Shown here: in pieces, positions 19,844-62,132 of the stretch
How the letters are laid out: every line of letters begins with the position of its first letter
How positions within the stretch are numbered: position 1 is the first letter of the stretch
Sequence record: OR062945.1
Length of the DNA: 64,000 bases
Reading direction: 5' to 3' (one strand)
From: Escherichia phage 308Ecol101PP
Program-made: the position numbers and the translations under genes
The notes under the pieces: model-generated
The model's input: only the letters and a program-made list of their open reading frames with translations
What the model was told of the DNA's origin: nothing
Database searches by the model: none

Positions 19844-19872
19844 CCAGTAGTTGTGTTATTATAGACCTATCA
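19844..19872 (+). promoter_or_regulatory. early promoter (GTTTAC -35, 17-nt spacer, TATTAT -10, AGACCTATC downstream)
   Basis: Consensus elements present; embedded in a 13-bp inverted repeat. Confidence 0.6.
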
Positions 19873-19888
19873 ACTACTGGAGAACAAA

Positions 19889-20206
19889 ATGAAAACCATC
19901 GATTGTAAAGCAGAATTTAAGATTTTTTATCACGGTTCAAGTAGTTCAGCTAACATCGAAAACATGCTTTGTCCTCCTGAGGAAACAGGAGTTCTGTCTG
20001 AAACCGGACGTAAGAAAAACTTGGATCGTGTATTCTTTACTGAAGATATCGGTTTAGCAAAGATTTATGCAGGACGAGCAGCACGCTCTTATGGAGGTGA
20101 ACCACGTCTCTATCGAGTAATTTCTCCGGTAGACGTAGTTCAAATGAATGATACTAAAGGTGCTACAGTTTATCACGCTGAATGGGCATTTTGTGAGGAA
20201 ATATGA
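19889..20206 (+). CDS. hypothetical protein (105 aa) with H-G-S ... Y ... E residues
   Basis: ORF with SD GGAGAACAAA; FYHGSS, IYAGRA, YHAEW blocks. Confidence 0.5.
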   Translation: MKTIDCKAEFKIFYHGSSSSANIENMLCPPEETGVLSETGRKKNLDRVFFTEDIGLAKIYAGRAARSYGGEPRLYRVISPVDVVQMNDTKGATVYHAEWAFCEEI

Positions 20207-20394
20207 GCAAATTAACTAAAGTTACTTTTATAGGTTGGTTTAAAAGCGGTGAGATGTTCACTAAAGATATCATGTTATCAGGTGATCGCGAAGAAATCGA
20301 GTGGGTTACGGTACAACTTGCTGAAGTGAACAACGCATTAGTTAAAGCATTTGTTAATGACGAGAAAGTTTTTGAAGCTGATTTCAGAGGATAA
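20203..20394 (+). CDS. hypothetical protein (63 aa)
   Basis: ATGA-coupled start. Confidence 0.45.
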   Translation: MSKLTKVTFIGWFKSGEMFTKDIMLSGDREEIEWVTVQLAEVNNALVKAFVNDEKVFEADFRG

Positions 20395-20395
20395 T

Positions 20396-20608
20396 ATGTA
20401 TTCAACTGTGTTTAAACCATCAACATACGAATTTGCATCAACTACACAATGGAAAGCTCTTATTCTGGAAGGATGGGAACTAATGATGGACTGTGAAGCA
20501 TCTGAAAAGTTTCCGCACGGCAAAGTGGACTTCGTTAAATTTGCTGTACGTCCGACTAAACGACAGATTCGTCAAGAAAAACGCAAATTTCGCAAAAGTT
20601 TAAAATAA
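20396..20608 (+). CDS. hypothetical protein (70 aa)
   Basis: ATG 20396 after CAGAGGATAA; ORF track starts at 20351. Confidence 0.45.
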   Translation: MYSTVFKPSTYEFASTTQWKALILEGWELMMDCEASEKFPHGKVDFVKFAVRPTKRQIRQEKRKFRKSLK

Positions 20609-20610
20609 CT

Positions 20611-20640
20611 GTTTACAAGCACCACATACTGTGTTACTAT
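20611..20640 (+). promoter_or_regulatory. early promoter
   Basis: GTTTAC, 18-nt spacer, TACTAT. Confidence 0.5.
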
Positions 20641-20668
20641 CTTTTTATCAACTACAGAGGAAATTAAA

Positions 20669-21037
20669 ATGAAAAAATTAATCGCTTTAGCAATGGTATT
20701 TGGATTAACCGGATGTGGTGCCCATGGCTTTATCCCTAATAACGTTGGCCAATTGATTTACAATCCGAATGTTAAACAATATGAACAACCTAAAGTTGAA
20801 GTGGAAGACCCGGTTACTGTAGGTAATCGAATGATTCAAGCTGATGCCCATGCTCAACGTTATCGTGACTCTGATACTGTAGCTGTGTCAAAGGAACAGC
20901 GCGTTAAAGAACATTGCTTACAGGCTACTGAAATCGCATTCATTCGCTATGTTGAAACAACCGGTAAAGAGCCTACCCAGAAACAAATCGCGAATAACTA
21001 CGTCCAGTGTATTGAACGTTTAAACAAATTTAATTAA
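20669..21037 (+). CDS. putative lipoprotein (122 aa)
   Basis: Signal peptide MKKLIALAMVFGLTGC with lipobox L-T-G-C; SD GAGGAAA. Confidence 0.6.
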   Translation: MKKLIALAMVFGLTGCGAHGFIPNNVGQLIYNPNVKQYEQPKVEVEDPVTVGNRMIQADAHAQRYRDSDTVAVSKEQRVKEHCLQATEIAFIRYVETTGKEPTQKQIANNYVQCIERLNKFN

Positions 21038-21040
21038 TTG

Positions 21041-21073
21041 GTTTACGCCAAAGTTAAAACAAGATGCTATAAA
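21041..21073 (+). promoter_or_regulatory. putative early promoter
   Basis: GTTTAC with TATAAA about 21 nt downstream (spacing atypical). Confidence 0.3.
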
Positions 21074-21098
21074 CATAACAAATCAAGAGGAAATTAAC

Positions 21099-21347: not shown

Positions 21348-21352
21348 ACTTG

Positions 21353-21382
21353 TTTACATTATAGATGGACTATAGTATAGTA
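21353..21382 (+). promoter_or_regulatory. early promoter
   Basis: GTTTAC, 18-nt spacer, TATAGT, AGTCCTATC downstream. Confidence 0.55.
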
Positions 21383-21410
21383 GTCCTATCAAATCAACTA
21401 AGGAGTTAAA

Positions 21411-21704
21411 ATGAAAAAGTTATCATTGGCAGCAATCTTACTCGCAGTATCATGTGCACCAGCTCCAGTTACGGCAGGTTATGATAAAGACCTCTGTGAG
21501 TGGTCAATGACTGCAAATCAAGAAGATGTTGAACAACAAATCTTCTCTGATATCATGAACATCACTAAACGAGACCGTCCTAATATGGTTAATAAAGTTG
21601 TTGAACAACTTAAGTCCGGTGGTATCATGCAGTACAATTATGTTTTGTATTGTGACCCTAATTTCGATAACAAAGATATCGTAACCGAAATCACAGGTGA
21701 ATAA
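21411..21704 (+). CDS. putative lipoprotein (97 aa)
   Basis: Signal peptide MKKLSLAAILLAVSC with lipobox; SD AAGGAG. Confidence 0.6.
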   Translation: MKKLSLAAILLAVSCAPAPVTAGYDKDLCEWSMTANQEDVEQQIFSDIMNITKRDRPNMVNKVVEQLKSGGIMQYNYVLYCDPNFDNKDIVTEITGE

Positions 21705-25534: not shown

Positions 25535-25543
25535 ATAATTTAA

Positions 25544-25570
25544 GGAATCCTTCGGGGTTCCTTTTTTTTT
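25544..25570 (+). terminator. intrinsic terminator, UUCG hairpin plus T9
   Basis: GGAATCC-TTCG-GGGTTCC followed by TTTTTTTTT. Confidence 0.8.
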
Positions 25571-25579: not shown

Positions 25580-25609
25580 GTTTACAAACACTAAAAACTG
25601 TGTTAAGAT
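25580..25609 (+). promoter_or_regulatory. putative early promoter
   Basis: GTTTAC with TAAGAT about 18 nt downstream. Confidence 0.4.
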
Positions 25610-25637
25610 ATTCTTACTTACTCAAGAGGAGAATAAT

Positions 25638-26888: not shown

Positions 26889-27049
26889 AAGAGAAATTGA
26901 AAGAGAAATTCTTACTAGAAATCAAGGAAAAAGACTTTGAGACATGGTATCGAATGGTGAAAGGGCTGACATTGCTTTTTAAAGCATCGTTATTCATGTT
27001 AGAACAACCTGGTCCTGATGGGCCTTTAGTAGGAAAGCTTAAAAAGTAG
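26885..27049 (+). CDS. small hypothetical protein (54 aa)
   Basis: ATGA-coupled; contains direct 12-nt repeat GAAAGAGAAATT x2 at start. Confidence 0.3.
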   Translation: MKEKLKEKFLLEIKEKDFETWYRMVKGLTLLFKASLFMLEQPGPDGPLVGKLKK

Positions 27050-27077
27050 TTTACATTCCCTCCTCTCGTGTTATGAT
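27049..27077 (+). promoter_or_regulatory. early promoter
   Basis: GTTTAC, 17-nt spacer, TATGAT, AGGCTTATC. Confidence 0.5.
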
Positions 27078-27104
27078 AGGCTTATCTTTAAATGGAGGTC
27101 TATC

Positions 27105-27686
27105 ATGACATGTCAATCTGAACTTCAAGAACGTGAATACCTAACAAATCTGATTGATAGCAAATTCACCCGCCAAGAACAAAACATTCTCTGGGCTTGC
27201 ACCGATTCTAAGGAAGACCCAGATTTCCACTATGAATTAGACCATCTTGTTCGTAAGCATATGACTTCTACAGTACCAGTAGAACTCTACCGTGGTGTAA
27301 CTCCAGAAGAAGTAGAACGTCTTTCCCTTCTTTCTGTGGGATGCCATTGGTCTCCTGGACGAGTAACATCGTTCACAACTGATTTCAGTACAGCTCGTCA
27401 ATTCTCCGGGAGATGGGAATATCAGACGTACACTATTCTTAGTCTCAGGAATGCTCCGTTCATTTTTGATTACTACCAAAACATGGTTAACATTGTACTC
27501 GCCGGAAAGAACCCTAAGCATGTTATGGAAGAAACTCGTATCGATGTCCTAGATATGATTGAATCTGAGCAAGAGTACATGGTCTCAGGTATCTCTAGAT
27601 TTGAGATTGTGGAAATTGAAGACTTAGAATATGACCCTTTATCTCGGTTATACAAAATCATTCATTTGAAAATGTTGAATTTTTAG
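27105..27686 (+). CDS. ADP-ribosyltransferase, ModA/ModB-like (R-S-E class), paralogue 1
   Basis: 193 aa; LYRG (Arg), SFT (S-x-S), EYMV (Glu) ; paralogous to next gene; T4 modA/modB position upstream of dda. Confidence 0.6.
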   Translation: MTCQSELQEREYLTNLIDSKFTRQEQNILWACTDSKEDPDFHYELDHLVRKHMTSTVPVELYRGVTPEEVERLSLLSVGCHWSPGRVTSFTTDFSTARQFSGRWEYQTYTILSLRNAPFIFDYYQNMVNIVLAGKNPKHVMEETRIDVLDMIESEQEYMVSGISRFEIVEIEDLEYDPLSRLYKIIHLKMLNF

Positions 27687-27715
27687 TGTACAAACTCTTC
27701 CGATGATGATACTAT
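27686..27715 (+). promoter_or_regulatory. early promoter
   Basis: GTGTAC, 18-nt spacer, TACTAT. Confidence 0.45.
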
Positions 27716-27743
27716 ACCTTTATCAACCATAGGAGAAACCTAA

Positions 27744-28352
27744 ATGTTTATGCCGTATAACGAGTGTGAAATTGAAGAAATGGTTCGTCGTGCTCAAAAC
27801 CCCGAATATCAAGATGTATTGCAGTACGAAATTGATAGTCAATTCAGCGATAATGAACAAAGCGTCCTTTGGCAGTGTATGGAAAACAAGCCAGACTGTA
27901 TTCAACAGGAGTTAAGTTCAATCGTTCGTAGAAATTGGACGTCTTCTGTTCCTGAGACAATGTATCGTGGAATCTCTAAGAAAACTATGGCCACACTCGA
28001 TGATAAAGGCATTGGTAGTATTATTAAATTTGACAGAGTAATGAGCTTCAGCCCAGTGTTCGGTGTAGCGCGTAACTTTGCTTCGTATAATTTTTACGGA
28101 ACATTTAATATGTTCTGCATCAAAGATGCACCATTTGCTTTCAACTTCCGTGAACATATGCTTAATATGATTCTGGCTGCACCATCTTGTGAGTTCAATG
28201 GAGCTTTCCCTGAAGCGACAAGACGGTCTAATGCTAGACTTATATCTGACGAATGTGAATTTATGCTCCCTATAGGGACTACACTGCGTGTAGATTCTAT
28301 TATTCAAGATGGACGTTATACAATCTGGAATCTGTCTATTGTCAGTTACTGA
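27744..28352 (+). CDS. ADP-ribosyltransferase, ModA/ModB-like (R-S-E class), paralogue 2
   Basis: 202 aa; MYRG, SFS, ECEFM motifs; shares N-terminal block (Q..VLW.C...K.D) with paralogue 1. Confidence 0.6.
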   Translation: MFMPYNECEIEEMVRRAQNPEYQDVLQYEIDSQFSDNEQSVLWQCMENKPDCIQQELSSIVRRNWTSSVPETMYRGISKKTMATLDDKGIGSIIKFDRVMSFSPVFGVARNFASYNFYGTFNMFCIKDAPFAFNFREHMLNMILAAPSCEFNGAFPEATRRSNARLISDECEFMLPIGTTLRVDSIIQDGRYTIWNLSIVSY

Positions 28353-28426: not shown

Positions 28427-28455
28427 GTGTACACTACCTGAGGGCATGATATTAT
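28427..28455 (+). promoter_or_regulatory. early promoter
   Basis: GTGTAC, 17-nt spacer, TATTAT, AAGCTTATC. Confidence 0.5.
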
Positions 28456-28505
28456 AAGCTTATCAGCTAAACGACCTTAACGTCCGTAAGACAGAGGAAA
28501 ATATT

Positions 28506-29252
28506 ATGTTATCAAATAATAAAATTAACAAAATTAATCGTCGTCTTGACCACACCAGAGCTTCTGCGAAGAGACGCTCTAAGGATTTTAACTTAGACTT
28601 TAATTACCTTAAAAACATTCTTGATCAAAAGGTCTGTGCTTACTCAGGTGAATCTTTTAATAACTCTGTTGAAGGTGAGAAATTATCCTTAGAACGTTTT
28701 AATAATGATATAGGCTACATTAAAGGTAATGTTATCCCGGTTAAGAAAAAATATAACACGGCTCGTTCTGATTTAACATTAGAAGAACTTATTGAGAAAC
28801 GCGATGCCATTGCAAGACGTATCGCTAATCCTTCGGCCCGTAAAGTAGAGAAACTTAATCTCGACGAGAAGAAATGGGCCCAAATTAAAAAGGTTTATGG
28901 TACTATTTTAAAAATCCGAGCAAAACGTGAAAATCGTGTTAAGCATATGGCGAACATGATGAAAAATCAACCTTTATCTAACGAATCTAAACTTAGAATT
29001 GTTGCTTTGAAAGCACGCATTAATGGCTCACATCAAGCAGAAGGCCATGAACTTACTAAACTCAACGTTCTTCTTAAAGGCTCTGACTGGAAAACTAAAA
29101 CTAAATTAACTGACGCTGAATCGCTTTTCGATACATATGATAAAGTTATCCAAGGTCTGCAACGTTTTGAAAAGATTGGTTTCATTGGTAAATTAAAATT
29201 GAAACGTGGCTTACCACTTAGCGCATCATTATTCCAACTGATTAAAGGTTAA
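28506..29252 (+). CDS. hypothetical basic protein in the T4 srd position (248 aa)
   Basis: Position between mod genes and dda as for T4 srd; identity not verified. Confidence 0.4.
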   Translation: MLSNNKINKINRRLDHTRASAKRRSKDFNLDFNYLKNILDQKVCAYSGESFNNSVEGEKLSLERFNNDIGYIKGNVIPVKKKYNTARSDLTLEELIEKRDAIARRIANPSARKVEKLNLDEKKWAQIKKVYGTILKIRAKRENRVKHMANMMKNQPLSNESKLRIVALKARINGSHQAEGHELTKLNVLLKGSDWKTKTKLTDAESLFDTYDKVIQGLQRFEKIGFIGKLKLKRGLPLSASLFQLIKG

Positions 29253-31568: not shown

Positions 31569-31598
31569 GTTTACAACCAAGGACGGTTGGAGTATAAT
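31569..31598 (+). promoter_or_regulatory. early promoter
   Basis: GTTTAC, 18-nt spacer, TATAAT. Confidence 0.6.
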
Positions 31599-31628
31599 CT
31601 TTCTATCTTAACCAAACGGGAAACAATT

Positions 31629-32125: not shown

Positions 32126-32155
32126 TTGTACATCCAAGGATGGATGGAGTATAGT
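32126..32155 (+). promoter_or_regulatory. early promoter
   Basis: TTGTAC, 18-nt spacer, TATAGT; spacer resembles that of the promoter at 31569. Confidence 0.5.
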
Positions 32156-32183
32156 GAATTCAATTTAAACAAAGAGAGAAATT

Positions 32184-33147: not shown

Positions 33148-33176
33148 GTTTACTTCTCCTCTGGATTTGGTATTAT
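33148..33176 (+). promoter_or_regulatory. early promoter
   Basis: GTTTAC, 17-nt spacer, TATTAT. Confidence 0.55.
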
Positions 33177-33202
33177 ATCCATATCAACCAGAGGAGAATA
33201 AT

Positions 33203-33727
33203 ATGTTAGTTTACCGCGTAGAACGTAGTTTTTGTACTCAACGTGAATCATTACCAGGAATTGCTATCGAAGATGGTAAAGCCGTCAGAATTTGGGAAAC
33301 CTCTTGGAATAAAGAACCTCGCTCGCCATACGGCTGGTCGGGCACCGACAACTCTGAAGAAACATGGGAGTTCCTTGATAAGCATGGAATACTCTCAGGT
33401 AACTTCTACCATCATGGCGACAACTATAATGTCCCTAATCGTCCTACAGTAAATGAAGACAAACTCCTTGAACAAAATATCTTAAGATACTATAGAATTG
33501 ATCACACATTTGAATTGAGTGAAGATTGGGCTCAAGGGTTCTATTTTGGATTTGAAAGTGTTGACGCGGTTTATGCATGGTTTGATGACCAGGTGGATGT
33601 TGAACTCTTGAAAGCTAAAGGATACTACATCGCGGTCTATGAAGCACCTGATTTCATCCTCGGAAGTTGTCAATTAATGTTTAGACGTTCATTGGCAGAA
33701 CAAGTTGATTTTATTTTGCTAAAATGA
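33203..33727 (+). CDS. hypothetical protein (174 aa)
   Basis: ATG 33203 after CAGAGGAGAATAAT; ORF track begins at 33122. Confidence 0.5.
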   Translation: MLVYRVERSFCTQRESLPGIAIEDGKAVRIWETSWNKEPRSPYGWSGTDNSEETWEFLDKHGILSGNFYHHGDNYNVPNRPTVNEDKLLEQNILRYYRIDHTFELSEDWAQGFYFGFESVDAVYAWFDDQVDVELLKAKGYYIAVYEAPDFILGSCQLMFRRSLAEQVDFILLK

Positions 33728-33756
33728 TGTACAACAACTATGGCCTATGATACTAT
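33727..33756 (+). promoter_or_regulatory. early promoter
   Basis: ATGTAC, 18-nt spacer, TACTAT, AGACCTATCAA. Confidence 0.5.
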
Positions 33757-33784
33757 AGACCTATCAAAACAAGAGGAGAATATT

Positions 33785-42874: not shown

Positions 42875-42876
42875 TT

Positions 42877-43135: not shown

Positions 43136-43137
43136 AA

Positions 43138-43211: not shown

Positions 43212-43658
43212 ATGTCCAAATATTTAACTCGTAAAGACCTTCTGGCAGTTGGCGGTGAAGTTGTTGCAGTAGTTCGTAATGGCGAATACGGTTCTGAAGT
43301 TTCTAAAGAGTTTCGTTCTCGTGAAGGTTTTTACTTCTTTGTTAAAGGTTCATCTGACTGGCGTCAAGTTGCAGCACGATTCTTTGTAGGACGTCAACGT
43401 TCTAAACAAGGGTTGGATGCAATTCTTTCTCACATTCGTCAAGGCCGTTCGCAACTAGCCCGTACTATGGGCACTAACAATATTGAATATGATGTAATCT
43501 TTGTTGCAGCTAAGAACATGAAACCCCTGACTACTGGTTATGGTAAAGGACAATTGGCTCTGGCATTCACTCGCAATCATACATCAGAATATCAAACACT
43601 CACTGAAATGAACCGTCTTCTGGCAGATAATTTCAAATTCGTTCTGCAGAGTTACTAA
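43212..43658 (+). CDS. ndd: Ndd nucleoid disruption protein
   Basis: 148 aa; [29 protein letters not shown]..., [31 protein letters not shown] match T4 Ndd as recalled. Confidence 0.75.
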
Positions 43659-43710
43659 TTTATACGGGCCTATTAAGTTAGGCCTTTAATTTATTTTTGA
43701 GGTAATTAAA

Positions 43711-43860
43711 ATGGTAGCATGGATTATTGCATTGCTGTGTTGGTCGTTTTTATTCGTTAACACTTTAGTTACAGGCGAAACAACAGTATTTCAACAGGCT
43801 GTGTCACAAGGTACCTTAGCGGTCTTAGCTCTTCTTAACGTATTAAAAGGCGAGCAATGA
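43711..43860 (+). CDS. small membrane protein (49 aa)
   Basis: SD GAGGTAATTAAA; MVAWIIALLCWSFLFVNTLV...; position resembles the T4 ac/ndd.x region. Confidence 0.4.
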   Translation: MVAWIIALLCWSFLFVNTLVTGETTVFQQAVSQGTLAVLALLNVLKGEQ

Positions 43861-43997
43861 TTAAGAAAATCTTAGCAGGAGCCTTCGGGCTCTTGTTTTT
43901 GCTTACGGTTCTGTACTACGGTGTGATGTTTGGGCTAATCCAAGTAGTGCTTTTCATTTCAGATGTTATAATGGTTATTCGTTCATTAATATGGTGA
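43857..43997 (+). CDS. small membrane protein (46 aa)
   Basis: ATGA-coupled; MIKKILAGAFGLLFLLTVLYYGVMFGLIQVVLFISDVIMVI. Confidence 0.4.
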   Translation: MIKKILAGAFGLLFLLTVLYYGVMFGLIQVVLFISDVIMVIRSLIW

Positions 43998-44001
43998 AAA
44001 T

Positions 44002-45327: not shown

Positions 45328-45403
45328 GTGCCCTAGCCTTAGGATTTCTCAGTGCAATAGCTGCACTAGTGATTTGGCTGTATTGGTTGGACAAACATGA
45401 TTA

Positions 45404-45437
45404 GGGAGCTTCGGCTCCCTTTTGTGCATTTTTTTTT
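45404..45437 (+). terminator. intrinsic terminator, UUCG hairpin plus T-rich tract
   Basis: GGGAGC-TTCG-GCTCCC followed by TTTTGTGCATTTTTTTTT. Confidence 0.75.
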
Positions 45438-45446
45438 CACAAAACA

Positions 45447-45475
45447 GTTTACATGTGCTTCAAACATGATATTAT
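45447..45475 (+). promoter_or_regulatory. early promoter
   Basis: GTTTAC, 17-nt spacer, TATTAT, AGACCTATCAA. Confidence 0.6.
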
Positions 45476-45514
45476 AGACCTATCAAATCAAAACAACCAA
45501 ATTGGAGAAATAAA

Positions 45515-46147
45515 ATGTCTAAAGTTACTTACATCATCAAAGCTTCTGAAAACGCTCTGAATGAAAAAACTGCTGCAATAATGGTTTATATCATTAAGAA
45601 CAACTTCACCACTGCTGCCAATGTCCGTGAAGCTCTGGAAGCAGAATACAATGCATCGGTTGTTAACTCTAACATTGGTGTATTGATTAAGAAAGGTTTA
45701 GTCGAAAAATCTGGTGATGGACTTGTAGCAACAGGCGAAGCAATGGATATTATCCAAAAAGCTGCAGACCTCTTTGCCCAAGAAAATGCTCCAGAACTTC
45801 TTCAGAAACGTAACACTAGAAAAGCACGTGGAGTTACTCCTGAAATGCATGAATTAGCAAACTTTGTTTTTGAAAATATTAAAGATAAAGTTGAAGTTAA
45901 AGAAATTGGTGAAAACCGTAGTAACTTGGAAGTTCGATTCGCTAAACGAGTTCTAGGCATTCGCCAAATTGAAATTCGACGAGATGGCGCTCTTAGAATC
46001 TTTGCATACAACATGTCAGAAACTGAATCAAAGCTGTTTACTTCTCTTGAAAATGATGTTAAGATTAAGATCGGTGGTAAATATACTTACATTGACTTCC
46101 CTAATGTGTCCAAAGAAATCATTACCCTTGTAACTAACGTACTGTGA
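45515..46147 (+). CDS. motA: MotA middle-transcription activator
   Basis: 210 aa; MSKVTYIIKAS..., NSNIGVLIKKGLVEKSGDGL, QENAPELL match T4 MotA as recalled. Confidence 0.8.
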   Translation: MSKVTYIIKASENALNEKTAAIMVYIIKNNFTTAANVREALEAEYNASVVNSNIGVLIKKGLVEKSGDGLVATGEAMDIIQKAADLFAQENAPELLQKRNTRKARGVTPEMHELANFVFENIKDKVEVKEIGENRSNLEVRFAKRVLGIRQIEIRRDGALRIFAYNMSETESKLFTSLENDVKIKIGGKYTYIDFPNVSKEIITLVTNVL

Positions 46148-46157
46148 GGAATACATA

Positions 46158-46487
46158 ATGAATAAGCTGAATATTATTAACGAACTTCGTAAATGTGCAG
46201 AACCTACTCAGGAAGGATGGGATATTTGGTACCACGGGGCTTATTTAGGGACAATTGTAAAGATTAAAGCAGGCCAATATACGGTTATTCGTGAAAATAA
46301 TGACGCGCCATTTGGCCTTCGTAAAAACTACATGGCAGCGATCAGTTCATTTGTTGATGCAGCTTACGAAATCTATAAAGAAGATTATAAAGAATATCAA
46401 CAGTCACAACCGGTTATTCGTTCGATTGGTGTAAATAAACAAGCACAAAAATCTATTTGGCAACGTATTAAGGAATGGTTTAAATGA
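46158..46487 (+). CDS. hypothetical protein (109 aa)
   Basis: SD GTGAGGAATACATA. Confidence 0.5.
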
Positions 46488-46945
46488 AAACTTTTAAAGA
46501 ACGTTTAGCTCTGTTAGATAAAGCTTTGTCGCGTGAGACTCCGGAAAGTCTAGCTGCTAAATTAGCTTCTTACGGTGGTGAATATACAGAACAAAATGTT
46601 TTAGATGAAGTTCCTGAAATCTGTTGGCAGACTCTGTATTGGGATGAAAACCAAAAGTATCAACGACGAATTGTCTGCGCAGCCAACCGTTTTAAATTAA
46701 AAGATGGACGAACTCTTATTATTCCAGGTGCTCGTCATTACTCTAAAGATATGGCTGAAGTACTTGATATAGTTGGTCCTCAATTAGTCTCGCAACAAGT
46801 TTGTGGCGACGACCAAGGCTTTATCGACCAATACTCTAATTACTGGACGCGTGAAGAAGCAATGATTATTGCAACGTATGCTGGACAGGTACGTATTGAA
46901 CGTGGCGGAAGTGAGAAAGAACTTTATTCAGAGGACCTTTATTAA
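46484..46945 (+). CDS. hypothetical protein (153 aa)
   Basis: ATGA-coupled start. Confidence 0.5.
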
Positions 46946-47226
46946 TGAATATTAAACAACTCCAGATTGATGCTATTGAAGCCCACATTAATCATATCAA
47001 ACGCCTGAATGCTATGATGGAAGAAAATTATGGTATGTATGCTAATCAGCCTGGTTGGGATGCTTTAGACCATCCTTATTTGGTTAATTTATGTAAAGGT
47101 GACACGTTAGCAATTATTCGTGATGGGTTAAAACCTTTCTTGCGTGACATGTATATTAAAATGAACGAAGAAATTATTAGCTCGTTGCAATATCAATTAA
47201 GGAAATTAGACGATGAGAATAATTGA
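46945..47226 (+). CDS. hypothetical protein (93 aa)
   Basis: TAATG-coupled start. Confidence 0.5.
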   Translation: MNIKQLQIDAIEAHINHIKRLNAMMEENYGMYANQPGWDALDHPYLVNLCKGDTLAIIRDGLKPFLRDMYIKMNEEIISSLQYQLRKLDDENN

Positions 47227-47437
47227 TTCTAAAGTAGATTATTTTAATTCCGTTAATGATAAGAATAAAGCTTTAATTCGCCACTTTATTACTGAGATGG
47301 GTTATACCGACTCTAAAGATTTGAAAGAGCACATTATCGAATGTTCTGTGGCTAAAAAGTTTTCTTTCACAGACAAATGTTTAAACGAGGTTATAAAGCA
47401 TTATGAACAATCTTGTAGCAAAACACGATTTCAATAA
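47213..47437 (+). CDS. hypothetical protein (74 aa)
   Basis: SD AAGGAAA; overlaps preceding stop. Confidence 0.45.
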   Translation: MRIIDSKVDYFNSVNDKNKALIRHFITEMGYTDSKDLKEHIIECSVAKKFSFTDKCLNEVIKHYEQSCSKTRFQ

Positions 47438-47511
47438 GGCTTCCGTCCATAAGGACAAAAAGAAATCAGAACTTCAATCTAAACGTAAACAAAAACATAA
47501 GGGTAAAGACT

Positions 47512-47811
47512 ATGCTTACTAAAATCAAAGAAAATCCTGCCACTGAACTTGTTATTCGATGTGAAGAACTTGCAGAGCTTTATCAGGTTAACCGAGAAGT
47601 GTGTCGTAGTGTTATCGTAGATATGGAAGATGAAGTCTGTTCTCGAATTGAGTTTAGTGTTGATTTCAGTCATTCTAAACCCGGTGAAATCACTATCGTA
47701 TTTGGTTCTGACTACACTGAAGAACAGGCTCTTAATGTCTTAGAATATGAAATGTCATTCTTTGACATACAGGACTACATTGATAGTTATAAGGAACAAT
47801 ATGAGTCATAA
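47512..47811 (+). CDS. hypothetical acidic protein (99 aa), possible Arn-like anti-restriction protein by position
   Basis: SD AAGGGTAAAGACT; net acidic; sits between motA and asiA. Confidence 0.4.
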   Translation: MLTKIKENPATELVIRCEELAELYQVNREVCRSVIVDMEDEVCSRIEFSVDFSHSKPGEITIVFGSDYTEEQALNVLEYEMSFFDIQDYIDSYKEQYES

Positions 47812-47962
47812 TCTTCAGAACGTAGTAGAGGCCGAACGTGAGCGTGAGGCTTTAGTCTATAATGAACTATTAGTTCAGTTCTTGGCCTTACACTCGTACG
47901 AACAGGAAGACTATACCAATTACGTTAAAAGCGTAGAAAAAGCTGTTTACAATCAACACTGA
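47801..47962 (+). CDS. hypothetical protein (53 aa)
   Basis: ATG 47801 overlapping preceding gene; ORF track begins at 47747. Confidence 0.35.
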   Translation: MSHNLQNVVEAEREREALVYNELLVQFLALHSYEQEDYTNYVKSVEKAVYNQH

Positions 47963-47972
47963 TAATGGTACT
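47943..47972 (+). promoter_or_regulatory. early promoter upstream of asiA
   Basis: GTTTAC, 18-nt spacer, TACTAT. Confidence 0.55.
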
Positions 47973-48008
47973 ATATCCATATCAACTAAGTGGAATGAAT
48001 AAAACGTT

Positions 48009-48281
48009 ATGAATAAAGACATTGAAATCGTACGTGAAATTATTACTATTGCTTCTATTTTGATTAAATTCTCTAGGGAAGATATTGTTGAAGACCGAGC
48101 AAGTTTCATCGGATTCTTGAATGAGATTGGAATTAAAAAAGATGGTCGGCAGCTAAATCAGAATTCTTTTAGAAAACTAATTACAAATTTAACTGCCGAA
48201 GAAAAGAAAACACTGATTAGTGAATTCAATGAAGGTTTTGAAAATATTTATCGTCATTTAGCGATGTATTCTAACAACTAA
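48009..48281 (+). CDS. asiA: AsiA anti-sigma-70 factor
   Basis: 90 aa; VREIITIASILIKFSREDIVE..., NQNSFRK, LISEFNEGFE match T4 AsiA as recalled. Confidence 0.85.
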   Translation: MNKDIEIVREIITIASILIKFSREDIVEDRASFIGFLNEIGIKKDGRQLNQNSFRKLITNLTAEEKKTLISEFNEGFENIYRHLAMYSNN

Positions 48282-58334: not shown

Positions 58335-58399
58335 CCAGTTTACGCTTTCAAATGAGTATGTTACTATAGTCAAGTTGACTAACTGAACAAGAGGTTCAT

Positions 58400-59317
58400 A
58401 TGGATTTAGAAATGATGTTGGATGAAGATTACAAAGAAGGTATTGCACTTGCCGACTTTAGTAACATTGCATTGGCAGCCGCATTAAACAACTTTGAAGA
58501 TGGCGATAAAATTACTGTTCCGATGGTTCGCCATGTAATCTTGAATTCAATTCGTAAAAACGTAGTGATGTTCCGTAAGCAAGGCTATACAAAATTTGTA
58601 TTGTGTATGGATAATGCTACTTCAGGTTATTGGCGTCGTGACTTTGCTTACTATTACAAGAAAAATCGTAAAACCGATCGTGAAGCTTCAAAGTGGGATT
58701 GGGAAGGATATTTTACTGCACTCCGTCAAGTTGTTGATGAGATTAAGAAATACATGCCGTACGTTGTAATGGATATTGACAAGTATGAAGCAGATGACCA
58801 TATCGGTGTATTAACTAAATATTTGTCATTAGCTGGACATAAGGTATGTATTGTTGCATCAGATGGTGACTTTACACAATTACACAAATATCCTAACGTT
58901 AAACAGTGGTCGCCACCACAGAAAAAATGGGTTAAAATTAAGAACGGTTCTGCTGAAATTGATTGCATGACTAAAATTCTTAAAGGTGACCGTAAAGACG
59001 GCGTTGCATCTGTTCGAGTTCGTGGCGACTTCTGGTTTACCAGAGTTGATGGTGAACGAACTCCGAGCATGAAAACAACGATTATTGAAGCAATTGCCAA
59101 TGACCGTTCTCAAGCTGAAGTATTATTAAGTGCGGAAGAATATAAACGGTATCAAGAAAATTTGGTTCTTATTGATTTTGATTATATCCCTGATAATATT
59201 GCTTCAACCATTATAGAGTATTATAACTCATATAAACCACAACCTAAAGGCAAGATTTATTCATACTTTGTAAAATCTGGTCTTTCTAAATTAACAAGTG
59301 TAATTAATGAATTCTGA
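58400..59317 (+). CDS. rnh: RNase H (5-prime to 3-prime exonuclease / FEN-like)
   Basis: 305 aa; acidic active-site blocks (VLCMDN, KYEADDHIG, VASDGDF); T4 position adjacent to gene 34. Confidence 0.85.
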   Translation: MDLEMMLDEDYKEGIALADFSNIALAAALNNFEDGDKITVPMVRHVILNSIRKNVVMFRKQGYTKFVLCMDNATSGYWRRDFAYYYKKNRKTDREASKWDWEGYFTALRQVVDEIKKYMPYVVMDIDKYEADDHIGVLTKYLSLAGHKVCIVASDGDFTQLHKYPNVKQWSPPQKKWVKIKNGSAEIDCMTKILKGDRKDGVASVRVRGDFWFTRVDGERTPSMKTTIIEAIANDRSQAEVLLSAEEYKRYQENLVLIDFDYIPDNIASTIIEYYNSYKPQPKGKIYSYFVKSGLSKLTSVINEF

Positions 59318-59594: not shown

Positions 59595-59910
59595 TATTAA
59601 ACCGGTTGATGAGACCGGTTTATCTGAACAAGAATTAGCAGTAAAACACGATAAAGATGATATCGCTAAATTGCTTGACCGACAAGAAAATGGATTCATT
59701 ATCGAATCCATGGTTGAACAATTTGGTATGTCTTATTTAGAAGCAACAACTGCTTTCTTGGAAGAAAATTCTATTCCAGAAACACAATTTGCTAAATTTA
59801 TTCCTACAGGAATTGTTGAAAAAATTACAAGCGAAGCAATTGACGAAAATATGCTTCGCCCATCAGTTGCTCGTGGTGAAAAAACTAATACGTTAGATTT
59901 CTTATTATGA
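59572..59910 (+). CDS. 33: gp33 late transcription co-activator
   Basis: 112 aa; acidic, C-terminal ...TNTLDFLL hydrophobic tail; position upstream of gene 59. Confidence 0.75.
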   Translation: MTQFSLSDIKPVDETGLSEQELAVKHDKDDIAKLLDRQENGFIIESMVEQFGMSYLEATTAFLEENSIPETQFAKFIPTGIVEKITSEAIDENMLRPSVARGEKTNTLDFLL

Positions 59911-60560
59911 TTAAAATACGCATGCCTCCTGATGGAGAACGTTATATTAACGGAAAATCGGTATACAAACTATACTTGATGTGCAAACAACATTTTAATG
60001 GTCGGTATGACGTAATCAAATATAACTGGTGCATGCGTGTTTCGGATAATGCGTATCAAAAACGCCGAGATAAATATTTCTTTGAAAAACTAGCAGAGAA
60101 ATATAAATTGAAGGAACTCACCTTGATATTCATAAGCAACTTAGTTGCTAACCAAGACGCATGGATTGGTGAGATATCAGACGCTGATGCATTAGTTTTC
60201 TATAGGGAATATATTGGACGTCTCAAACAAGCCAAGGAGACGTTTGCTGAAGATGTACGTAACATCTACTATTTCGGTAAGAAAGTTGAAGTTAGCGCGC
60301 TTCAAGAGATATTTGATTATAATAATAAAGTTCAGTCGAGCTACATATTTAAATTGCTACAAAGCAATATAATTTCATTTGAAACCTTCTTGTTGTTAGA
60401 TTCATTTTTGAATATTATAGATAAGCACGACGAACTCACCGATAACTTAGTCTGGCAAAATTATTCTACCAAATTAAAGGCATATCGAAAAATACTTCAA
60501 ATCGATGGAAATGCTGCTAAGAAATTGTTCATAGAAACAATCAAATCATGTAAGTATTAA
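59907..60560 (+). CDS. 59: gp59 helicase loader
   Basis: 217 aa; ATGA-coupled; position immediately upstream of gene 32 as in T4. Confidence 0.8.
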   Translation: MIKIRMPPDGERYINGKSVYKLYLMCKQHFNGRYDVIKYNWCMRVSDNAYQKRRDKYFFEKLAEKYKLKELTLIFISNLVANQDAWIGEISDADALVFYREYIGRLKQAKETFAEDVRNIYYFGKKVEVSALQEIFDYNNKVQSSYIFKLLQSNIISFETFLLLDSFLNIIDKHDELTDNLVWQNYSTKLKAYRKILQIDGNAAKKLFIETIKSCKY

Positions 60561-60599
60561 GCTTTATTTCTTGTGTGTTAAAATTACTTTATAAATAAA

Positions 60600-60682
60600 T
60601 CATACCAGCTACGAGGTATAAGTGTCGTAGCAACCAACTGTAAGTAAATAAATTAAATAATCTAAATAAAAGGTAATAATCC
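60600..60682 (+). promoter_or_regulatory. gene 32 autoregulatory translational operator (hairpin/pseudoknot plus unstructured AU-rich tract)
   Basis: GCUACGA-10 nt loop-UCGUAGC stem at 60608-60631, then AU-rich tract AAGUAAAUAAAUUAAAUAAUCUAAAUAAAAGGUAAUAAUCC up to the gp32 ATG. Confidence 0.6.
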
Positions 60683-61585
60683 ATGTTTAAACGTAAATCT
60701 ACTGCTGACCTCGCTGCTCAAATGGCTAAACTGAATGGTAACAAAGGTTTCTCTTCAGAAGATAAAGGCGAATGGAAGCTGAAGCTAGATGCATCCGGTA
60801 ATGGTCAAGCGGTAATTCGTTTCTTGCCAGCAAAAACTGATGATGCACTACCATTTGCAATTCTTGTTAACCACGGTTTCAAGAAAAATGGTAAATGGTA
60901 TATTGAAAATTGCTCTTCTACACATGGTGATTACGACTCTTGTCCTGTATGTCAGTACATTAGTAAAAATGACCTGTACAATACCAACAAAGCTGAATAT
61001 TCTCAACTGAAACGTAAAACTTCTTATTGGGCTAATATTCTGGTTGTTAAAGACCCTCAAGCTCCAGATAACGAAGGTAAAGTATTTAAATATCGTTTCG
61101 GTAAAAAGATTTGGGACAAAATCAATGCAATGATTGCAGTTGATACCGAAATGGGTGAAACTCCAGTTGATGTTACTTGTCCGTTTGAAGGTGCTAACTT
61201 CGTTCTGAAAGCTAAGCAGGTTTCTGGTTTTAGCAACTATGACGAATCTAAATTCTTGGGTCAATCTGAAATTCCTCGTATTAATGATGAAGCATTCCAG
61301 AAAGAACTATATGACCAGATGGTAGACCTTACCACTTTGACGGCTAAAGACCAGTTCAAATCCTTTGAAAAATTAAATGAATCTTTCGCTAAGGTTCTTG
61401 GTACTGCCGCTCTTGGTGGTGCAGCAGCCGCAGCAGCTTCTGTTGCAGATAAAGTTGCTTCTGACCTTGACGATTTTGATAAAGACATGGAAGCCTTTAG
61501 TTCTGCAAAAACTGAAGATGACTTCATGAGCTCTACCTCATCCTCTGATGATGGTGACCTCGATGACCTGTTAGCCGGTCTATAA
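60683..61585 (+). CDS. 32: gp32 single-stranded DNA-binding protein
   Basis: 300 aa; zinc-binding H...C...C...C, acidic Ser/Asp-rich C-terminus ([18 protein letters not shown]). Confidence 0.95.
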
Positions 61586-61592
61586 TAAATCG

Positions 61593-61613
61593 GGAGACTT
61601 CGGTCTCCCTTTT
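61593..61613 (+). terminator. intrinsic terminator after gene 32
   Basis: GGGAGAC-TTCG-GTCTCCC followed by TTTTGAG. Confidence 0.7.
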
Positions 61614-61640
61614 GAGTATCTGTAAATTGCCGAAAAAGTT

Positions 61641-61669
61641 GTTTACTTCTTCCCTGGATGTGTTAGTAT
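61641..61669 (+). promoter_or_regulatory. early promoter
   Basis: GTTTAC, 17-nt spacer, TAGTAT, AGACCTATCAA. Confidence 0.55.
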
Positions 61670-61698
61670 AGACCTATCAACAACATGAGGAAATCAAA

Positions 61699-62103
61699 AT
61701 GGAAATCGGAAAATCTTATATCATTAACCCTTTATTTAAAGATGACTTTGTTCAAGAAGCACCACACAATAACGCTAAGATGTTAAAATTGATTGAACTC
61801 CACGGGCCTAGTTTTGTTGTAAACGGAATGGAACCTGATTATGATAGCGATACGTCAAACGTAGTAAGTGTAACTATGGAAGATGGTACTGTATGTTCTG
61901 CCGGTGGTGAAATTGAAACTTATTTTGAGATTTATCCTGACGAGTTCAAATACTTTATTGAGTACTTTACTGAGGTAACTTTAGAAAAGCCTCAACCTAC
62001 TAACGAAGGTATAACTTTAGGTGTAACAAAAATCCATTGTATCGTAGATGAAACCAACGTCGACGAAATCATCAAACTTTTGCAAAAAACTTTTAAAAAG
62101 TAG
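61699..62103 (+). CDS. hypothetical protein (134 aa)
   Basis: SD CATGAGGAAATCAAA. Confidence 0.5.
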   Translation: MEIGKSYIINPLFKDDFVQEAPHNNAKMLKLIELHGPSFVVNGMEPDYDSDTSNVVSVTMEDGTVCSAGGEIETYFEIYPDEFKYFIEYFTEVTLEKPQPTNEGITLGVTKIHCIVDETNVDEIIKLLQKTFKK

Positions 62104-62132
62104 TGTACAATCAGATAGGGTTATGTTATAGT
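62103..62132 (+). promoter_or_regulatory. early promoter
   Basis: GTGTAC, 18-nt spacer, TATAGT, AGCCCTATCAA. Confidence 0.5.

Follow-up and report, generated by a model that had tools for sequence, protein, structure and literature searches.

For the T4-like phage RB69, 58 predicted early promoters with a sequence logo were presented by Nolan et al. 2006 (PMC1524935), who noted the C at -3..-1. Promoter-early stem-loop (PeSL) cassettes have been described for RB49/phi1, T4/PST and KVP40/nt-1 (Arbiol et al. 2010, PMC2839356; Comeau et al. 2014, PMC4122927), with stems lying between the -35 and -10 elements or overlapping the -10 (PMC2839356) and, in T4/PST, with a stem of the form 'AGNA-loop-TCNT' (PMC4122927). 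Both the consensus (PMC1524935) and the promoter stem-loop cassette (PMC2839356, PMC4122927) are, accordingly, already in the literature. In the T4 genes e, soc, 49 and I-TevI, translation is masked by hairpins that have a promoter embedded in them; in e and I-TevI this promoter is a late one, expression being delayed until late infection (reviewed in PMC3014915).

The window, i.e., the whole stretch of 64,000 nucleotides analysed here (Escherichia phage 308Ecol101PP, OR062945.1), is 97-99.8% identical to Mosigvirus genomes, and its source is assigned by sequence to the T4-like coliphages of the genus Mosigvirus (RB69/ST0 type). A weight matrix trained on positions -45..-7 only of the published RB69 early promoters retrieved 21 sites on the plus strand, 20 of them intergenic, and none on the minus strand of the window; the 20 predicted early promoters, all on the plus strand, are collected in Table 1. 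They correspond or are orthologous to sites in the published RB69 early list, stand directly 5' of the orthologues of the T4 early genes modA, modB, srd, motA, asiA, ndd, motB.2, sp and imm.1, and leave a leader of 20-24 nt before the ATG. They read GTTTAC-N17/18-(TGn)TAnnnT, with A-6 G-5 W C-3 C-2 T-1 A+1 T+2 C+3 A A next to it on the 3' side. Each is packed into an intergenic gap of about 60 bp, in which a stop codon is succeeded by GTTTAC, the spacer of 17-18 bp, TGnTAnnnT, a discriminator of 6 bp, the A start, a leader with the Shine-Dalgarno (SD) sequence, and the ATG; in 13 of the 20 promoters the preceding ORF has its stop codon ending -1 to +12 nt from the -35. The predicted +1 register reproduces the map positions 35,662 and 41,225 of the T4 promoters Pe35.3 and Pe40.4 (PMC6024815). 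The sites are thus predicted sigma-70-dependent early promoters of a T4-like phage. An earlier note on this DNA had called them early promoters, and its placing of a conserved block over the expected start and initial transcribed sequence agrees with the span of -6..+5 and with the T4 register. The nine sites quoted there are all real, on the plus strand and arranged as described, although the coordinate 19844 falls inside the spacer of a promoter whose -35 begins at 19834.

Table 1. Predicted early promoters of the window (-35 to +5) with the associated stem-loops and terminators
Feature	Position	Strand	Remarks
UUCG-loop terminator 5' of 19400 promoter	19377-19392		
Early promoter	19400-19440	+	Degenerate block (GTACTTACACC); spacer CTTCCTCT pairs with SD AGAGGAA
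Early promoter 5' of ORF 19889-20206 (RB69ORF040c-like)	19834-19873	+	Full block AGACCTATCAA
SD-pairing stem-loop	19840-19884	+	Spacer TTCTCCAGTAGTTG pairs with CAACTACTGGAGAA (includes SD); -21.1 kcal/mol, z -5.5; encloses -10 and start site
Early promoter 5' of imm.1 (20669-21037)	20611-20651	+	Block CTTTTTATCAA
Early promoter 5' of sp (21411-21704)	21352-21392	+	Full block AGTCCTATCAA
Stem-loop of sp promoter	21364-21390		GGACTAT/ATAGTCC; z -2.5
Intrinsic terminator 5' of 25580 promoter	25542-25563		
Early promoter	25580-25620	+	Degenerate block (ATTCTTACTTA)
modB (27105-27686) early promoter	27049-27088	+	Block AGGCTTATCTT
modB stem-loop	27067-27112	+	5' arm with -10 (GTGTTATGATAGGCT), 3' arm with SD and AUG (GGAGGTCTATCATGACAT); -22.5 kcal/mol, z -5.0; conserved at T4 modB promoter
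modA (27744-28352) early promoter	27686-27726	+	Block ACCTTTATCAA
srd (28506-29252) early promoter	28427-28466	+	Block AAGCTTATCAG
Early promoter	31569-31609	+	Cassette family AACCAAGGAYGGTTGGAG-TATAAT-CTTTCTATCTT; hairpin within spacer
Early promoter (TTGTAC)	32126-32166	+	Without block (GAATTCAATTT); hairpin within spacer
motB.2 (33203-33727) early promoter	33148-33187	+	Block ATCCATATCAA
motB.2 stem-loop	33154-33198	+	TTCTCCTCTGG pairs with CCAGAGGAGAA (SD); inner pairing TGGAT/ATCCA; -22.5 kcal/mol, z -5.3; kept in RB69 (inner stem GGTT/AACC replaces GGAT/ATCC), T4 arms of different sequence
Early promoter (ATGTAC) 5' of cef region	33727-33767	+	Full block AGACCTATCAA; weak stem GGCCTAT/ATAGACC, perfect in RB69 (GGTCTAT)
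Early promoter of RB69ORF270c-like gene (42421-42684)	42365-42405	+	Full block AGTCCTATCTA
Stem-loop of 42365 promoter	42377-42402		TAGGACTA/TAGTCCTA; z -3.0
ndd.1 (42935-43135) early promoter	42877-42917	+	Block AGTCCTACTGA
Stem-loop of ndd.1 promoter	42888-42915		z -4.0
ndd (43212-43658) early promoter	43138-43178	+	GCTCTCATGGA in place of block
ndd stem-loop	43148-43178		GCTCTCATGGA pairs with spacer TGAGAGC; z -3.4
UUCG-loop terminator just 5' of motA promoter	45404-45419		
motA (45515-46147) early promoter	45447-45486	+	Full block AGACCTATCAA; no spacer arm pairing with it
asiA (48009-48281) early promoter	47945-47985	+	Block ATCCATATCAA
rnh (58400-59317) early promoter	58338-58378	+	Start-site palindrome AGTCAAGTTGACT in place of block; listed in RB69 as early and middle
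Early promoter 5' of ORF 61699-62103	61641-61680	+	Full block AGACCTATCAA, yet no arm pairing with it
Early promoter of frd.1-like ORF 62168-62416	62103-62143	+	Block AGCCCTATCAA
Stem-loop of 62103 promoter	62114-62141		GATAGGGTTAT/ATAGCCCTATC with G.U pairs; z -6.3

The conserved positions -6..+5 had no part in site selection, and in the 20 intergenic sites their conservation amounts to 15/20 for A-6, 10/20 for G-5, 16/20 for C-3, 17/20 for T-1, 19/20 for A+1, 16/20 for T+2, 14/20 for C+3 and 15/20 for A+5. The composite TAnnnT-AGNCCTA was found nine times against 0.38 ± 0.58 expected by chance (eight matches at promoters, one a palindromic mirror on the minus strand), which upholds a conserved block after the -10, and the relaxed form TAnnnT-NNN-YYTATC 17 times against 4.1 ± 1.9. 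CCTATC by itself is not enriched in the window (16 versus 18.5 expected), and the signal of the block is therefore its position relative to the -10. However, the extended consensus, counted previously at no fewer than fifteen sites, is less widespread in its full form: AGWCCTATC occurs with no mismatch in 6 of the 20 promoters and with at most two in 9, exactly the examples first quoted, and that count is approached by CYTATC alone, the short core from C-3 to C+3 (C-3 Y T A T C+3), which 14 of the 20 match with at most one mismatch; a quarter of the early promoters lack the block altogether. T-1 A+1 T+2 C+3 A A recurs in all three logos, made from the window, from 55 RB69 sites and from 26 T4 sites, and G is found at -3..-1 in none of the 55 RB69 early sites, while the predominant spellings of the block differ between T4 and Mosigvirus. 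The RB69 middle promoters are without the block; what they keep is just the A start and a pyrimidine-rich stretch at -4..-2, and the remainder is therefore specific to the early class. The block is, then, the discriminator, the start site and the first five transcribed bases of the predicted early promoters.

The dyad symmetry of the promoter, missed in the first reading, makes the block the 3' arm (-7..+3) of a predicted stem-loop, with the 5' arm in the spacer (-25..-16) and the extended -10 in the loop. Roughly 25-50% of the promoters show such pairing of block and spacer (e.g., TAGGACTA/TAGTCCTA). Together with the SD-pairing stems treated below, predicted folds with z-scores of -2.5 to -6.3 are present at eight window promoters. 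Real promoters fold at -11.4 kcal/mol, against -8.3 ± 0.46 for chimeras of the upstream and downstream halves of different promoters (0/5000 permutations), and 54.4% of cells pair in the fixed register, compared with 31-46% in slid registers. At least eight arm pairs occur (GGACT/AGTCC, GGTCT/AGACC, GGATG/CATCC, GGAAG/CTTCC, GGGCT/AGCCC, GAGAGC/GCTCTC, GAGAGA/TCTCTC and GGAGTT/AACTC), the arms covarying both from one paralogue to another and across T4/RB69 orthologues, and a stem is kept with different arm sequences in the orthologous T4 and RB69 promoters of motB.2, modB, regB, denV and ipI. Changes on both sides of the arms number 50 versus 36.4 ± 5.5 (reached in 1/500 shuffles), a count which shared descent can inflate among paralogues. 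About half of the window promoters are without a convincing stem, and the promoters 45447 and 61641 have the full block with no pairing arm, so that pairing alone cannot explain the block. Quasipalindrome correction by template switching could also keep complementarity without selection.

In the first reading the block was suggested to tune promoter escape or to be recognised by a phage or host factor, and the former may hold. A sequence-specific factor reading the block fits poorly with arms that change their sequence yet stay complementary. In its most explicit form, a phage or host DNA-binding protein would bind the dyad at -25..+3 as an operator and shut off the early promoters within minutes post-infection, T4 early-promoter shut-off being described as of unknown mechanism (PMC3014915; PMC2988021). 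The early-class specificity of the block, its span of -6..+5, at which protein binding would shut out RNA polymerase, and the half-palindromic consensus itself are in keeping with this; but at least eight complementary arm variants are the signature of base pairing and not of a conserved protein half-site, a quarter of the early promoters have no block to bind, the predominant spellings differ between T4 and Mosigvirus, and no candidate protein was found, which leaves an operator highly improbable.

Other promoters form a class absent from the first account, in which the SD or AUG of the gene that follows is paired with the spacer (TTCTCCTC...) or with the -10 itself. The spacers are enriched 2-3.5 fold in anti-SD 4-mers, and the SD/AUG is less accessible behind the real upstream sequence than behind random stretches of the genome (p = 0.05, 0.003, 0.014). 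However, masking of the SD by its own upstream sequence is no stronger than by the upstream sequence of another promoter, and masking therefore characterises either the class or a few strong cases. Two genera have retained the stems of this class at modB, motB.2 and regB, and such placement is sensible only in mRNA, which speaks against stems acting in DNA, as cruciforms or single-strand hairpins of replication and recombination at which cassettes would be shuffled in recombination hot spots. Extrusion from duplex DNA is also poor for short stems with loops of 6-8 nt. The strand comparison is divided. In T4 early promoters the sense strand has a folding advantage of 3.6 kcal/mol over the antisense (1.1 in controls); in RB69 and the window it folds no better, and the RB69 stems, with 7 G.U and 5 A.C interruptions, show no strand asymmetry either, which is in keeping with a role in DNA. 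Recombination at the motifs and a possible stem-binding protein were proposed in the PeSL papers (PMC2839356, PMC4122927), and the DNA-level role is regarded as unlikely, though deserving weight. Intrinsic termination, the function stated for PeSLs, by which the stems would insulate each cassette from upstream transcription, is a still weaker candidate and seems quite unlikely: one RB49 PeSL stem-loop did lower downstream reporter expression (PMC2839356), but the promoter-embedded stems on the plus strand all lack a U-tract, AUCAAAAC following instead, and separate canonical UUCG-loop terminators with T-runs stand just 5' of three promoters (Table 1).

The promoters also fall into families, likewise overlooked at first, whose members have the spacer, block and leader in common; RB69 has, among others, an 11-member family TAGGACTATGT-TATAGT-AGTCCT-ATCAAAAC. 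Among 13 orthologous T4/RB69 promoter pairs, a paralogue is closer than the orthologue in at least one genome in 11 and in both genomes in 10, and the Tequatrovirus orthologue of the window promoter 42365 has the T4-type ACAACT-ATCAACTAC. The genus-specific cassette families point to concerted evolution. The extended similarity might then be mostly non-functional hitch-hiking: the promoters would be copies of a small number of mobile cassettes whose likeness is maintained through recombination or gene conversion, and selection would act on the two promoter elements (-35 and -10) and the A start only; the likeness within families and to own-genome paralogues is as expected, and PeSL-mediated recombination and mini-circles have been reported in RB49/phi1 (PMC2839356). 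Nevertheless, the core T-1 A+1 T+2 C+3 A A is common to T4 and RB69 across different families, and the stems outlast complete arm turnover at orthologous promoters, which needs selection or pairing-directed mutation; hitch-hiking as the main cause is judged improbable.

The preferred account, to which a probability of roughly 0.6 is given, is that of three layers: a shared initiation core, stem-loops, and homogenised cassette families. The core, in which T-1 A+1 T+2 C+3 A A goes together with pyrimidines and no G at -3..-1 and frequently with G-5, would most likely serve efficient and precisely placed initiation by the host RNA polymerase at promoters that have to out-compete those of the host without a phage factor. 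In the second layer, the block would form the 3' arm of a stem-loop with the spacer, or the spacer or -10 would pair with the SD/AUG. With the start site inside the stems, these would form only in read-through transcripts from upstream promoters, the promoter's own mRNA being without the 5' arm. Their function would most likely be at the RNA level, where a stem may serve the upstream message as a 3'-end mark or protection, or may attenuate read-through; the SD-pairing class would in addition prevent translation of the downstream gene from polycistronic RNA and might open if a ribosome terminates at the adjacent upstream stop codon. The third layer corresponds to the PeSL cassette picture, and the spellings AGTCCT and AGACCT would dominate because the cassettes are paralogous families homogenised within the genome.

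The block is genuine, but the start-site region of T4-like early promoters had been described before, and the present results extend known biology. Among strong sigma-70 phage promoters, T7 A1 (AUCGAG) and lambda PL (AUCAGC) have A-U-C starts, and T5 N25 reads TATAAT-AGATTC-A; the likeness lies in the A start followed by U(C), the pyrimidine at -1 and, in T5 N25, the AG right after the -10, while neither a fixed 11-nt block across dozens of promoters per genome nor spacer pairing is known in these systems. The RB69/T4 early promoters share with those of the window the GTTTAC -35, the 17-18 bp spacer, the TGn extended -10, TAnnnT, the A-rich upstream region, the A start and the same downstream genes, although the imm promoter of the window phage has lost A-11 (TGCTAT). 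The published RB69 model (PMC1524935) ends at +1 and notes the C at -3..-1 only, TCAA at +2..+5 and the spacer pairing not being described there. With the PeSLs the window shares an early promoter and stem-loop in one compact intergenic cassette between the upstream stop and the downstream SD/ATG, stems between the -35 and -10 or over the -10, family-like similarity, and a sequence (T)AGGA...TCCT(A) that fits the T-even 'AGNA-loop-TCNT'. RB69/Mosigvirus are not treated in the PeSL papers (PMC2839356, PMC4122927), nor are the SD/AUG-pairing class and the fixed 3'-arm register of -7..+3 described in them, and the absence of U-tracts from the window stems makes the terminator label doubtful. Finally, as in the T4 masking hairpins, the SD/AUG would be sequestered in transcripts starting upstream and the promoter is predicted to lie within the 5' part of the structure, so that its own transcript would be translatable; however, the embedded promoter is early in the window and not late, and the effect would therefore be one of promoter-of-origin or coupling control rather than of timing.

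The block that follows the -10 element of the early promoters (A-6 G-5 W C-3 C-2 T-1 A+1 T+2 C+3 A A) provides one arm of a stem in many promoter copies, and the stems are maintained through sequence turnover. The 8 kb at 40000-48000, with rIIB, denB, ndd, gene 52, motA, arn and asiA, match many genomes of the T4-like coliphages in the genus Mosigvirus (RB69/JS09/ST0 group) at 97% identity, and 42330-42960 matches phage ST0 at 99.8%. The + strand of the window is the early-strand region (gene 47, gene 43, uvsX, gene 41, modA/modB, motB, gene 39, rIIA/B, asiA), followed by tail-fibre genes on the - strand and then by the rnh and frd region. Candidate promoters were chosen only by a -35-like hexamer, a 16-19 bp spacer and TAnnnT, followed by a Shine-Dalgarno sequence (SD) and ATG, which gave 20 candidates, all on the + strand, from 19400 to 62103 (promoters are named by the start of the -35 element). 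A weight matrix trained only on -45 to -7 of the published RB69 early promoters returned 21 matches on the + strand (the same 20 and one within motA) and none on the - strand. The strands were separated only by this phage-specific matrix; scanning with a generic sigma-70 consensus was uninformative (55 sites vs 51.4 expected). The hexamer [GT]T[TG]TAC stands at -35 in 19 of the 20, a spacer of 17 or 18 bp and a TAnnnT -10 in all 20, TG at -15/-14 in 16-17, and A or T at -43 to -40, in an A/T-rich UP-like upstream region, in 19-20; the leader is 20-24 nt long in 13. The genes downstream include modA, modB, srd, motA, asiA, ndd, sp and imm.1. The sites are thus T4-type early promoters, as an earlier note had proposed from the sequence. 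A hairpin promoter of the N4 type was dropped, since sigma-70-type -35 and -10 elements are present and the largest ORF, of 1,291 aa, is, judged by ORF sizes, far below a giant virion RNA polymerase.

The match within motA is strong (score 18.6) and is followed neither by the block nor by a ribosome-binding site, and therefore represents a chance match or an internal promoter. At the orthologue of the RB69 imm promoter, which was not called by the matrix scan, G replaces the invariant A at -11, and this promoter is probably inactive or weak in the window phage because of that change.

The anatomy described in the earlier note was found at all nine sites that it quoted, one of which, 19844, falls in the spacer, the true -35 start being 19834. 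Its count of at least fifteen was too high for the full AGWCCTATC, which with up to 2 mismatches occurs at only 9 sites (the nine quoted examples), the short core C-3 Y T A T C+3 being present with up to 1 mismatch in 14 of the 20. At the positions outside the selection, the counts among the 20 window promoters were A-6 15, G-5 10, C-3 16, T-1 17, A+1 19, T+2 16, C+3 14 and A+5 15. TAnnnT-AGNCCTA was found 9 times in the window vs 0.38 expected and TAnnnT-NNN-YYTATC 17 times vs 4.1, while CCTATC alone occurs there at the chance level, with no enrichment. About a quarter of the window early promoters lack the block. With the -10 set as -12 to -7, the block spans -6 to +5 in the predicted register, with the conserved A as +1, so it would cover the expected start and the first transcribed bases, as had been proposed. 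The same rule applied to T4 puts +1 at T4 coordinates 35,662 and 41,225, where Pe35.3 and Pe40.4 are placed on the T4 map (PMC6024815), and this agreement supports the register chosen.

An extended consensus is itself known: Nolan et al. 2006 predicted 58 RB69 early promoters by HMM and showed a logo with a C preference at -3 to -1 (PMC1524935), and, according to Hinton 2010, T4 early promoters have "additional regions of consensus" besides UP, -35, TGn and -10 (PMC2988021). The 51-bp RB69 model ends with the +1 A (PMC1524935), and TCAA at +2 to +5 therefore lies outside it. Logos were recomputed from 20 window sites, 55 published RB69 sites in register and 26 T4 sites from 77 kb. The block is partly common to T4, whose early logo has A-6, T-1, A+1, T+2, C+3, A, A like that of Mosigvirus and then C T A C; however, G-5 and C-3 are much weaker in T4, where the commonest spelling is ACAACT-ATCAACTAC, whereas Mosigvirus prefers AGTCCT- or AGACCT-ATCAA. 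None of the 55 RB69 early sites has G at -3, -2 or -1. In the RB69 middle promoters (25 predicted; dependent on MotA and served by the same polymerase), all that remains is the A start and a G-free stretch rich in pyrimidines at -4 to -2, with no signal at -6, +2, +3 or +5. The block is thus peculiar to early promoters, and its precise spelling to the genus. The site upstream of uvsX carries YTTATC after its -10 despite not being an early promoter. At the rnh promoter, for which RB69 lists both an early (Pe:149309) and a middle (Pm:149298) promoter, a near-perfect palindrome centred on the predicted start site replaces the usual block.

The conserved block of the earlier note is real, and what had been overlooked is its dyad symmetry, many promoters being inverted repeats (table). 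In the type A stem, centred on the -10, TAGGACTA at -23 to -16 pairs with TAGTCCTA at -7 to +1 and the extended -10 lies in the loop; in type B, the partner of the leader is either the first part of the spacer or the -10. A convincing stem is missing from about half of the window early promoters.

Early promoters with predicted stems and other features of the window (promoters by the start of the -35 element, + strand)
Position	Feature	Sequence or pairing	Gene or neighbour
16325-16367	resembles MotA-box middle promoter; orthologue of RB69 Pm:24034	AAATGCTGTATAACCCTTAGTATATAATCGTCTTATC	upstream of uvsX
19377-19392	UUCG-loop terminator	GGAGAC-TTCG-GTCTCC, then T-run	adjoins -35 of early promoter 19400
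19400	type B stem	CTTCCTC pairs with GAGGAAG	
19834	type B stem	TTCTCCAGTAGTTG pairs with CAACTACTGGAGAA	ORF 19889-20206
21040-21095	orthologue of RB69 imm promoter (Pe:19331, GATACTAT)	GATGCTAT	
21352	type A stem		sp
25542-25563	UUCG-loop terminator	AAGGAATCC-TTCG-GGGTTCCTT, then T9	adjoins -35 of early promoter 25580
27049	type B stem	GTGTTATGATAGGCT pairs with SD and AUG of modB	modB
33148	type B stem	TTCTCCTCTGG pairs with CCAGAGGAGAA	motB.2
33727	type A stem, weaker		
42365	type A stem		
42684-42876	gap of roughly 190 bp		between ORF270c-like gene and ndd.1 promoter
42764-42874	short ORF		within the gap
42877	type A stem		ndd.1
43138	type A stem		ndd
43660-43684	another hairpin with T-run		after ndd
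45404-45419	UUCG-loop terminator	GGGAGC-TTCG-GCTCCC, then T-run	adjoins -35 of early promoter 45447 (motA)
46036-46072	early-promoter matrix match	GTTTAC-N18-TAAGAT	within motA coding sequence
58338-58386	rnh promoter, palindrome	AGTCAAGTTGACT	rnh
62103	type A stem		

Folding against dinucleotide shuffles gave z-scores of -2.5 to -6.3 for 8 window promoters, and real promoters reached -11.4 kcal/mol vs -8.3 +/- 0.46 for chimeras, in which the upstream half of one promoter was joined to the downstream half of another (0 of 5000 permutations). Structures of -18 kcal/mol or lower were predicted for 15% of the window, 9% of the RB69 and 36% of the T4 early promoters vs 2.4% of random same-strand 68-mers. 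When the type A register was fixed over the 55 RB69 promoters, 54.4% of the cells were paired vs 31-46% after shifting the partner by 1-3 columns, both sides had changed in 50 cells vs 36.4 +/- 5.5 in shuffles (1 of 500), and a second test of the pairing counted 253 Watson-Crick pairs vs 224.7 +/- 8.6. The promoter consensus is half-palindromic in itself, and the covariation of the arms comes on top of this. The arm pairs found were GGACT/AGTCC, GGTCT/AGACC, GGATG/CATCC (twice), GGAAG/CTTCC, GGGCT/AGCCC, GAGAGC/GCTCTC, GAGAGA/TCTCTC, GGAGC/GCTCC and TGGTGGAGTT/AACTCTACCA. Among orthologous promoters, the motB.2 stem persists with completely rewritten arms (-22.5 kcal/mol in the window, -24.4 in RB69, -23.7 in T4), its inner part showing a double compensatory change between the window and RB69 (GGAT/ATCC vs GGTT/AACC); the modB stem reaches -22.5 kcal/mol in the window and -20.8 in T4, and the promoters of regB, denV and ipI likewise retain a stem after rewriting of the arms.

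Base pairing is favoured over a sequence-specific protein operator because the arms vary in sequence yet stay complementary. In the operator reading, a factor that turns T4-type early promoters off abruptly, a few minutes into infection, would recognise the early-class-specific dyad block at -25 to +5, and the genus-specific spellings would then reflect co-evolution with this factor. It is the only reading that would be exciting if true, but we give it a very slim chance, below the mechanism preferred here: instead of a half-site of fixed sequence there are at least eight arm variants with complementarity kept, and some promoters have no block at all. The block is thus unlikely to be the target of an early shut-off factor, given the covarying arms.

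Intrinsic termination by the embedded stems was judged unlikely, as no U-tract follows any of them on the + strand, AUCAAAAC being found instead, and none was called in the + strand terminator scan. Separate canonical UUCG-loop terminators with T-runs lie directly upstream of three promoters. A search of the window with Rfam covariance models gave 0 matches at the gathering score. As to whether the pairing acts in RNA or DNA, G.U vs A.C interruptions numbered 7 vs 5 in RB69 stems and 2 vs 0 in T4 under a strand-symmetric selection of stems; in T4, the sense RNA folds 3.6 kcal/mol better than the antisense vs 1.1 in controls, and for the RB69 and window promoters the sense RNA is folded no better than the antisense. 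Both a DNA-level function and termination were rated below the RNA stems preferred here.

The SD and/or AUG is paired in predicted folds enclosing the promoter's own start at 19834, 27049 and 33148 (-21 to -22.5 kcal/mol), and also at 19400. Anti-SD 4-mers occur in 16-23% of the spacers vs about 7% of background 18-mers (p = 0.056 for the window, 0.021 for RB69, 0.006 for T4), and replacing the real 60 nt upstream by random genomic sequence raised the predicted unpaired probability from SD to AUG: 0.44 with the real sequence vs 0.53 in the window (p = 0.05), 0.475 vs 0.553 in RB69 (p = 0.003) and 0.405 vs 0.496 in T4 (p = 0.014). Against chimeras, a promoter's own upstream sequence masked the SD no more strongly than that of another early promoter (not significant), and SD masking is therefore a property of the class borne by a few strong cases, with a modest effect for the class as a whole. 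The upstream stop codon ends -1 to +12 nt from the -35 in 13 of the 20 window promoters, so that a terminating ribosome would cover the 5' arm, and translational coupling by unmasking is plausible given this position.

The early-promoter cassettes form families. The RB69 promoters fall into groups with a common spacer, block and leader, such as an 11-member family TAGGACTATGT-TATAGT-AGTCCT-ATCAAAAC, a 4-member family AAACTCTYGAGAGCAGAG-TATAAT-GCTCTC and a pair AACCAAGGATGGTTGGAG-TATAAT-CTTTCTATCTTA, and over promoter pairs spacer identity correlates with block identity (r = 0.19, 0 of 2000 permutations). Among 13 T4/RB69 promoter pairs defined via orthologous downstream proteins, a paralogue is more similar than the orthologue in at least one genome in 11 and in both in 10. 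The Tequatrovirus orthologue of the gene after promoter 42365 carries the T4-type cassette TACTAT-ACAACT-ATCAACTACGGAGG, the coding sequence being about 69% identical; a search of IMG/VR for loci orthologous to that of the 42421-42684 gene found 3 contigs only, all of them near-identical. On sequence comparison, the family structure and the replacement of orthologues fit the pattern expected from concerted evolution or cassette replacement, owing to which the full spelling AG(A/T)CCTATC may look strongly conserved. Pure hitch-hiking of the block was likewise rated lower than the mechanism preferred here.

In T4, the promoters with -12 at about 70672, 55360, 27056 and 6606 have a common block and leader, TACTAT-ACAACT-ATCAACT(AC)TGATAC(G/A)GA, followed at variable distance by TTGGAGAAT(A/G)AA and then, where the sequence listed extends that far, by ATG; the fourth copy (about 6606) has ATCAAT instead of ACAACT. 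This suggests repeated promoter-plus-leader cassettes. The short ORF before the ndd.1 promoter, annotated in JS09 and absent from the RB69 annotation, forms a small variable insert between two type A cassettes, as the shuffling model of promoter-early stem-loop (PeSL) cassettes would predict.

We propose that the common core (G-free -3 to -1, T-1, A+1, U+2, C+3, an A-rich leader, often G-5) is optimal for placing the start site and for initiation by the host holoenzyme at promoters obliged to win without phage factors. The stems would form in read-through RNA, since the promoter's own transcript starts inside the stem, and may there stabilise or delimit the upstream message, while those pairing with the SD may gate translation of the downstream gene, by analogy with the hairpins of T4 e, soc, 49 and I-TevI (PMC3014915). 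The genus-specific spelling would be kept by recombination among cassettes, as in the PeSL model.

The predicted cassettes bear out that 60 bp can combine three functions, those of a very strong promoter for the host polymerase, of a stem-loop and of a leader with a ribosome-binding site. The current understanding is not overturned, and the interest is modest; the fixed register of the 3' arm on the start site, the SD/AUG-masking stems and the lack of the block in middle promoters may be of use for engineering or annotating T4-like phages and in the search for the early shut-off mechanism. Both an extended consensus and a cassette of promoter and stem-loop have been described before, and the window is an RB69-group addition. 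New here are the extension to +2 to +5, the finding that middle promoters do not carry the block, its fixed register as the 3' arm, the lack of terminator features, the SD/AUG-pairing stems that T4 and Mosigvirus both keep at modB, motB.2 and regB, and the quantified case for concerted evolution. In the available text of Arbiol et al. 2010 (PMC2839356) and Comeau et al. 2014 (PMC4122927), the PeSL is an early promoter with a stem-loop that overlaps the -10 or lies between it and the -35, and it has a stop codon on its upstream side and SD and ATG downstream, the T4/PST stem being "AGNA-loop-TCNT"; RB69 has 0 occurrences in the former and no mention in the available portion of the latter. The PeSL picture is thus extended to the RB69 group, as the window has both the stable stem-loop, which lies in the early promoter or overlaps it, and the compact intergenic cassette of upstream stop codon, promoter, SD and ATG.
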